Source: Candidatus Borrarchaeum weybense (GTDB lineage: Archaea; Asgardarchaeota; Sifarchaeia; Borrarchaeales; Borrarchaeaceae). Taken from it: a stretch of 64,000 nt of DNA. The DNA is taken from NCBI GenBank assembly GCA_019057385.1, contig JAHQJS010000005.1, positions 352,799-416,798 on the forward strand. Direction: 5' to 3'. The notes under the pieces are model-generated. The model was not told where the DNA came from and did not search any database. It saw only the letters and a program-made list of their open reading frames with translations. Of this stretch, positions 7,856 to 8,102 are shown piece by piece; within the stretch, counting starts at the first letter, position 1; every line of letters begins with the position of its first letter. The position numbers and the translations under genes were made by a program.

Positions 7856-7960
7856 ACTATATATATAACTTGTCATATAGTACACAATGCATTGTCATAC
7901 AATGATGAATATCTTTGCTTAAATAGATATTCATCATTGAAATCATTGACATATGACAAG
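7856..7960 (+). promoter_or_regulatory. promoter region: TATA-like box, TGTCAT(A) operator half-sites, 15-bp inverted repeat
   Basis: AACTATATATA; TTGTCATA at ~7870 and ~7892; TTGACATATGACAA 7946-7959; CAATGATGAATATCT/AGATATTCATCATTG 7900-7939. Confidence 0.6.
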
Positions 7961-7963
7961 GCA

Positions 7964-8102
7964 TGAGGCGAGTTCACGCCAAGTGTAAGGGTGTCATTAT
8001 CTGAAGAGCTATTTGAATGGTTCTCAAAGAATTGTGGCCCCAACGCCTCAAGCGCCGAGGAGGGGCGCTCAATAAGTACCCAGGTTAAGGAAAGGAGTGA
8101 AC
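7964..8102 (+). ncRNA. candidate structured 5' leader RNA (multi-stem domain + GCGCC hairpin), copy 1
   Basis: P1 TGAGGCG/CGCCTCA and hairpin AGCGCC-GAGGAGG-GGCGCT. Homologous to 27673-27810(-) with compensatory changes. Confidence 0.6.

Follow-up and report, generated by a model that had tools for sequence, protein, structure and literature searches.

Cis-regulatory RNAs established in archaea are few. The question raised by this locus of Candidatus Borrarchaeum weybense is whether the stretch that heads one of its operons, and that recurs 20 kb away on the other strand, is a further such RNA, a set of DNA-level control sites, or a combination of the two. An earlier sequence-only reading had taken it for a leader with a junction-containing, aptamer-like domain resembling a riboswitch or attenuator. 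A literature search on Asgard archaea and riboswitches found no report of a cis-regulatory RNA, and one on RNA-motif discovery in archaea returned nothing specific. Here we analyze the locus within a window of 64,000 nucleotides, which is part of contig C5 of the 4.18 Mb genome (G000; 37% GC) and to which all positions given without a locus identifier refer.

Leader copies and their promoter DNA

The two leaders, A and B, align block for block in the order that the sequence-only reading had given, and with its coordinates and motifs: a TATA box, TTGTCAT half-sites, a palindrome, a domain of about 90 nt, a GCGCC hairpin, a GUACCCA box, an SD sequence and the ATG. The features of the promoter DNA and the first gene are as follows:

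7856-8102 (+): leader A, followed by the ATG at 8103
7856-7868 (+): TATA-box region of promoter A, AACTATATATATA (from the sequence; the block recurs atop B, C, A2, C2 and a fourth promoter on C5)
7869-7881 and 7890-7904 (+): two TTGTCAT operator half-site blocks, repeated in five of five leader copies
7900-7914 and 7925-7939 (+): A-specific inverted repeat with 15-nt arms, facing an alignment gap in B
7946-7960 (+): palindromic operator A, TTGACATATGACAAG (sequence, A/B alignment, genome scan)
8103-8627 (+): first gene of the cassette operon, coding for an ATC-hydrolase/V4R/MetOD1-like protein of 174 aa (weak match to Pfam PF14196, and homologues)
27895-27673 (-): leader B, followed by the ATG at 27672
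27885-27895 (-): TATA-box region of promoter B (sequence, alignment, genome scan)
27814-27828 (-): palindromic operator B, TTGTCATATGACAA plus G (sequence, genome scan)

A third copy, leader C, lies on contig C4 of the same genome (L001:1487-1625:-) before a DUF3303 gene. The genome of Candidatus Borrarchaeum yapensis, of the same genus (G004), carries A2, the orthologue of leader A (L043:2055-2183:-), and B2, a copy of leader B with an identical domain, and a metagenome contig (L115) carries C2, a C-like copy before a V4R-like gene. The block order is kept throughout these copies, which provide only five distinct domain sequences from about three lineages. Between A and B the leader is conserved better than the third codon positions of the downstream genes (66% against 48.5% identity). 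The stretch at A is best explained as a promoter with a 5' leader of about 210 nt heading a five-gene cassette operon, transcription presumably starting about 25 nt downstream of the TATA box, where general knowledge of archaeal promoters would place it. The neighborhood (4399-6407(-), 7068-7616, 14394-16172 and 28024-29845(-)) is dense in ATC-hydrolase/V4R/MetOD1-like paralogues, some of them without the hairpin, and also contains two genes with MetE-type catalytic domains.

The sequence-only reading had not seen that the AT-rich blocks upstream make up a promoter and its operator sites. The block AACTATATATA opens all copies, with TTGTCAT following at once, then further half-sites, and last a TTGTCA-TA-TGACAA palindrome. 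Behind a strong TATA box there are thus three TTGTCA/TGACAA sites, the last of them a near-perfect palindrome, located at and downstream of the expected start. The usual site of an archaeal repressor is at and downstream of the transcription start. The promoters constitute a regulon under a putative DNA-binding factor, which in view of this operator position is most likely a repressor. A genome scan recovered the palindrome at leaders A, B and C, along with a fourth promoter, C5:162071(-) (L179:2777-3943:-), which has a similar TATA block and an operator palindrome with three mismatches. There a plain leader of about 45 nt, without the RNA domain or the hairpin, precedes PAS histidine kinase and Ogt-like genes, which indicates that the DNA and RNA layers are separable. 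The PAS histidine kinase and the Ogt-like DNA-binding protein are themselves possible members or regulators of the same regulon.

In each of the five leaders an ORF of 10-19 codons (MTR.../MTS...; 7953-7988, 27821-27789(-) and L001 1625-1566(-)) starts at the ATG within the operator palindrome. Having neither SD nor conserved peptide, the ATG and its ORF are probably a by-product of the CATATG core; a leader-peptide attenuator was rejected on these two points together with the lack of a terminator.

Fold and natural variation of the junction domain

The domain downstream of the last operator comprises these parts:

7964-7970 (+): 5' strand of P1 (UGAGGCG), purine-rich (MFE folds, covariation table)
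7975-7985 (+): P2, a small hairpin (CAC/GUG) inside the conserved AGUUCA block (MFE folds)
7989-8041 (+): P3 arm, with P3a pairing 7989-7997 with 8034-8041 and P3b pairing 8002-8009 with 8020-8026
8010-8019 (+): apical loop of P3, holding UGAA (folds)
8044-8050 (+): 3' strand of P1 (CGCCUCA), CU-rich and anti-SD-like (MFE folds, covariation table)
27724-27813 (-): domain of leader B, with P1 (27810-27805 with 27730-27725), P2 (27802-27798 with 27791-27787), P3a (27785-27777 with 27743-27735) and P3b (27770-27766 with 27754-27750)

Folded alone, A, B and C each give the same three-way junction with the hairpin next to it (MFE), and none of 200 dinucleotide shuffles is as stable as A (z-score -3.05) or B (-4.05). 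The inner stems that had been described for both copies reappear in the folds of A and B. The CU-rich strand of P1 stops 1-2 nt before the hairpin in all copies, and the junction strands vary between them in length and sequence. P2 is a hairpin in every copy, of 3 to 7 bp and in no shared register; the small GTTCA/TGAAC-type hairpin claimed for both leaders is present as GUUCA/UGAAC in B only, A having CAC/GUG instead and a strain variant UCAC/GUGA. The lower part of P3 is centered on GUCA/UGAC, its upper part pairs CUGAAGAG with CUCUCAG, and the cap loop holds UGAA. This UGAA and the UUCA in or next to P2 are invariant but for one base and could pair with each other, as the sequence-only reading had suggested, their invariance speaking neither for nor against such pairing.

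With the start region of A included, the MFE structure swaps P1 for GUUCAC/GUGAAC (7971-7977 with 8097-8102, directly before the AUG), an alternative that covers the spacer before the AUG, belongs to leader A only and is not kept in the other copies. The MFE structure of A2 retains P1 with a rearranged interior, and that of C2 is a different fold, P3a pairing at only five of nine positions. Just before P2, leaders C and C2 have two and three G5 runs respectively (L001 about 1617-1590(-); L115), which together with the GGAGGGG of the hairpin could compete for C-rich strands or form a G-quadruplex.

We tabulated P1 by script across the copies. Between A and B three of its pairs show compensatory double changes, exactly as had been claimed, and C keeps P1 with one G-U; because of the extra G-runs in C and C2, no single column-wise alignment accommodates P1 of all copies. 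In P3, 90-92% of cells pair, against 39-56% with the partners slid, and for P3 and the hairpin together the figure is 93% against 39-56% (model-fitted alignment). Covariation in P3 among the five sequences did not rise above that of shuffles, since these stems hardly vary and are conserved mostly in sequence. Contigs of related strains, compared with leader A, supply further variants: at the base of P3b, 8001 C>T gives U-A in place of a C/A mismatch; 8021 T>C converts a G-U to G-C, and 8044 C>T a G-C to G-U in P1, while 7987 A>G brings P2 to four pairs (UCAC/GUGA) and 7979 C>T introduces the same base as in A2. The sequence with the X4 strain changes has an MFE of -45.8 versus -40.6 kcal/mol and an unchanged architecture. 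Several G-U pairs of the sense strand become A-C if read on the other strand or as a DNA site. Both the strain changes and these G-U pairs argue that selection acts on the RNA and not on a symmetric DNA site.

This evidence bears on the alternative that the leaders have no function at the RNA level and are duplicated regulatory DNA, with the stems being inverted operator-like half-sites (GTCA/TGAC) for the same DNA-binding factor. It would account for the resemblance of the P3a core, GUCA/UGAC, to the TTGTCA/TGACAA operator core, for the scant variation of P3 and for the limitation of the copies to one genus. However, it fits poorly with the three compensatory double changes in P1, with G-U pairs on the sense strand only and strain changes going both from G-U to G-C and from G-C to G-U, with a leader conserved better than silent sites, and with folds more stable than those of shuffles, so that we regard it as unlikely.

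Among 61 relatives, the model R1 scored above 120 bits in G000 and G004 only, its other matches, at about 40 bits, being to the hairpin alone; within this set the full domain is found in just one genus. Searches anchored on the proteins added two informative loci, whose leaders are short or consist of the hairpin only. L181 has the TATA and TTGTCAT blocks in front of a gene that shares 74% identity with gene A; its short leader, GAGG ... AGUUCA ... CCUC and then the hairpin, has a short GAGG/CCUC helix around AGUUCA and is without P3. Other first-gene leaders of the group likewise pair a purine-rich strand with a CU-rich one that adjoins the hairpin, a small variable insert lying between the two. 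These short and variable forms imply that the constant part is a P1-like helix with AGUUCA and that P3 is an optional elaboration, in which respect it is unlike an aptamer core. In sum, P1 is kept in C, and pairing is kept or improved in the strain variants; P3a is broken in C2 and P3 is absent from L181.

The hairpin module and the translation start

Both leaders end in a module of a GCGCC-GAGGAGG-GGCGC hairpin, (G/A)UACCCA, SD and start codon at near-fixed spacing. Its instances in the window include:

8052-8068 (+): terminal hairpin of A, with GCGCC stem, GAGGAGG loop and GGCGC stem (occurrence count, alignment)
8076-8105 (+): start region of A, with GUACCCA at 8076-8082, the SD at about 8087-8097 and the ATG at 8103 (predicted to be mostly unpaired)
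8694-10619 (+): hairpin-only copies before the internal genes, starting at 8694, 9337, 9970 and 10603, with an oligo-T run before each
27673-27723 (-): end of leader B, with the hairpin at 27723-27707, GUACCCA at 27699-27693 and the SD, followed by the ATG at 27672

As the sequence-only reading had proposed, the junction-containing domain heads transcription units and the internal cassette genes carry the hairpin only. In each cassette gap (8628-8693, 9268-9336, 9896-9969 and 10535-10602) an oligo-T run lies 10-14 nt from the hairpin on its 5' side; this run may serve as an archaeal terminator or else belong to an AT-rich promoter element placing the start at the hairpin.

The 17-nt hairpin occurs eight times in the window, where 0.02 would be expected, and 11 times in the whole genome before unrelated genes, namely those for V4R/MetOD1-like paralogues, DUF3303, a flavoprotein and a 124-aa protein without a family match that possibly adopts a small alpha/beta-barrel fold. 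Its loop is complementary to the 16S 3' end, ...CACCUCCU. With at most one mismatch it is present in 27 of 400 genomes of the phylum, and a pattern scan, whose sample is biased because the pattern required the word TCTCA, located it in 73 metagenome stretches as well as in genomes that bear the labels Methanomassiliicoccales, Thermoplasmata, Aenigmatarchaeota and unclassified archaeon. The scan also returned a few matches in GC-rich bacterial sequence, which are without the downstream boxes and are probably due to chance. Outside Borrarchaeum the consensus reads N-GA, hairpin, (G/A)AUGA, A-rich spacer, (G/A)UACCCA, SD and AUG, with an extra stem inserted before GUACCCA in the Aenigmatarchaeota copies. 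The genes behind the module vary widely: DUF3303 is found repeatedly in different phyla, and others code for small cytoplasmic proteins, judged by eye to be SnoaL-like and GYD-like, and for secreted proteins. No Rfam family matched the module and a literature search for the hairpin sequence found no paper; the hairpin is an instance of an archaeal 5'-UTR module that is widespread and apparently not yet described, a breadth that the sequence-only reading had not recognized.

Another Asgard family (G040, G031; L049, L051, L054-L057, L059) displays a different conserved element of about 110 nt before the hairpin, GAAAUCGG ... CGGGGAUU ... AGUGAGGGGA, upstream of genes for proteins with signal-peptide-like N termini. 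RNAalifold pairs GGG of this element with CCC of the downstream UACCCA box in seven of seven sequences, which would close the leader into one domain.

Leaders regulated by L7Ae are marked by a k-turn signature, in which the C helix of the hairpin is flanked by GA on one strand and, on the opposite strand, by a 3-nt bulge and a second GA (PMC6298567). Hairpin copies of other archaeal lineages have this signature (GA ... NRU-GA). The window copies read AA-GCGCC...GGCGC-NNN-AYAA and do not fit the L7Ae k-turn with its 3-nt bulge and tandem G-A/A-G pairs, both GA dinucleotides being missing from the Borrarchaeum hairpins. In another alternative the leader would bind a protein, perhaps one encoded in the regulated operon or a general factor that recognizes the hairpin too, and translation or decay would be set by its binding to the junction. 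The blocks AGUUCA, CUGAAGAG, UGAAUG and UCUCA, in loops and stems, are conserved in a manner that suits recognition by a protein more than a variable-stem aptamer, the attached hairpin elsewhere has a k-turn signature like that of known L7Ae sites (PMC6298567), and all units fall in one regulon with a sensor kinase. Yet the window hairpins are without the G-A pairs needed for L7Ae and P3 is optional, and we consider a protein-binding leader of this kind clearly unlikely.

A search of the whole window with Rfam 15 at gathering scores returned nothing but HEARO at 39658-39873, and permissive scans of the leader and related loci gave noise only, the A-specific inverted repeat (7900-7939) being the source of its weak miRNA-like component. 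The HEARO RNA (IscB-associated omega-type; + strand) is full-length and scores 129.7 bits, where the gathering score is 83. For all five leaders, MFE and ensemble predictions that run beyond the start codon leave the SD unpaired; with an accessible SD in each predicted fold, they give no evidence of an OFF state. When P1 was blocked in folding, the SD was not paired in a conserved way and the alternative folds were not conserved. A scan for bacterial-type terminators and promoters found none above shuffles, and the oligo-T runs are not conserved. We looked for a shared metabolic theme or pathway in the first genes and found none, the leader being kept before unrelated genes (V4R/MetOD1-like in A and B, DUF3303 in C). 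Complementarity between the real SD and the CU-rich strand of P1 is good in A2, C and C2 and poor in A and B, and for this reason we did not adopt such a pairing.

These results allow an evaluation of the riboswitch that the sequence-only reading had envisaged, in which the junction would be an aptamer for a metabolite or ion, P1 the switching helix, and the hairpin and SD the expression platform. The aptamer-like aspect draws on the junction fold and on P1 covariation: a covarying P1 closes a three-way junction adjoining the translation start region, UUCA and UGAA are invariant, unpaired and capable of a loop contact, the P1 strand has competing pairings, and the domain is found at the heads of transcription units only. 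The riboswitch or attenuator aspect found no support. With a full domain in one genus among 61 relatives, no Rfam match, no terminator-like site in the bacterial-type scan, an SD that is open rather than sequestered, and unrelated downstream genes without a common metabolic theme, the term riboswitch is only partly supported; moreover, P3 is dispensable (missing in the close orthologue at L181) and degraded in C2, and the junction strands differ among copies in length and sequence. We judge this reading to be decidedly improbable.

The junction might instead be a processing or stability signal that guides an endonuclease to a cleavage site immediately 5' of the hairpin. The mature mRNA would then start with the hairpin, as may the internal cistrons following cleavage or re-initiation. 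Each internal gene is preceded by the hairpin alone, directly behind an oligo-T run, the end of P1 lies 1-2 nt from the hairpin in all copies, and trimming of long operator-rich leaders is conceivable; but neither a tRNA-like fold nor a ribozyme family was found, and such a signal appears very unlikely. Among specific candidates, a tRNA-like processing element or cloverleaf was rejected (ARAGORN negative, 7000-29000), as was a hammerhead ribozyme: P3b has the hammerhead-like word CUGANGA, but neither stem II nor the GAAA core agrees with it, and there is no match in Rfam.

The preferred account and its relation to known systems

To the account that we prefer, namely an operator-controlled promoter followed by a lineage-specific, cis-acting structured 5' leader built onto a widespread hairpin/SD module, we assign about an even chance of being correct. 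Past the last operator the transcript would fold into P1, joining the purine-rich and CU-rich strands, P2, a small variable hairpin, and P3, an arm in two parts whose apical loop is conserved. The junction would abut, at 1-2 nt, the hairpin that shows the SD-like GAGGAGG loop, with GUACCCA, the real SD and the ATG coming next. The junction would be a lineage-specific, cis-acting add-on to the hairpin/SD module, P1 tying up the CU-rich, anti-SD-like strand so that the hairpin keeps its proper fold and the SD stays accessible. A switch would have room in the alternative pairings that compete with this fold, namely GGCG/CGCC in A, GGGUA/UACCC in B and, in every copy, UUCA with UGAA, and any such switching, together with its signal, would presumably set the translation or stability of the first cistron.

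The leader offers a concrete candidate cis-regulatory RNA, with three paralogous copies, natural short forms minus one arm, and strain variants that amount to natural compensatory mutants. Its hairpin is one instance of a leader module common to Asgard archaea, Thermoplasmata, Methanomassiliicoccales, Aenigmatarchaeota and many unassigned metagenome contigs. If the L7Ae-type k-turn holds outside the genus, the module would represent a general layer of archaeal translational control, with the Borrarchaeum copies as a natural k-turn-less variant for comparison. A bolder version, in which the junction is a true sensor of a small molecule or protein, grafted onto a pan-archaeal and normally k-turn-bearing hairpin/GUACCCA/SD module, we find unlikely. 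If true, it would mean that a single expression platform is combined with different sensor RNAs in different archaeal lineages. Such a modular system of riboregulators would be without a published precedent and the first known from Asgard archaea.

At the DNA level, the leaders resemble archaeal repressor operators at the TATA box and start, as generally known, in that TTGTCA-N2-TGACAA and half-sites stand right behind a consensus TATA box at no fewer than three promoters here, with a near-match at a fourth; they differ in the RNA domain added in three of these four promoters and in that the regulator is a putative factor. With the purine riboswitch (RF00167) the leader shares a P1-P2-P3 junction of about 70-90 nt placed immediately before the region where translation starts, with P1 nearest to the expression signals and a loop-loop contact possible. 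Unlike it, the leader is without an Rfam score and a conserved junction core, its P2 is not positionally conserved, its P3 is optional, it is confined to one genus, and neither an SD-sequestering nor a terminator alternative was found. The leaders also recall those that mask the SD with an anti-SD, such as RNA thermometers and translational platforms, in having a CU-rich strand that lies near the SD, is complementary to SD-like purine runs and is itself paired with a purine-rich strand upstream of it, which thus acts as an anti-anti-SD. In contrast to these, the real SD is never paired in the predicted folds, no temperature or ligand logic is evident, and the CU-rich strand of A fits the hairpin loop better than its own SD.

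The hairpin itself compares with the L7Ae k-turn hairpins of 5'-UTRs (Daume et al. 2017, PMC5539422; Huang, Ashraf and Lilley 2019, PMC6298567), which likewise are short hairpins beside the SD in mRNA leaders, and which the GCGCC/GGCGC hairpins of other archaeal lineages match in the 5' GA and 3' N-R-U-G-A. The window copies, with AA before and NNN-A-Y-A-A after the hairpin, depart from them in missing the defining G-A pairs, and the leaders further differ in their conserved GUACCCA box and in the 90-nt junction, which is without counterpart there. In the known L7Ae cases the SD is part of the helix and individual genes are concerned, l7ae itself among them, whereas here an SD-like motif occupies the loop and a second, real SD lies downstream of it.
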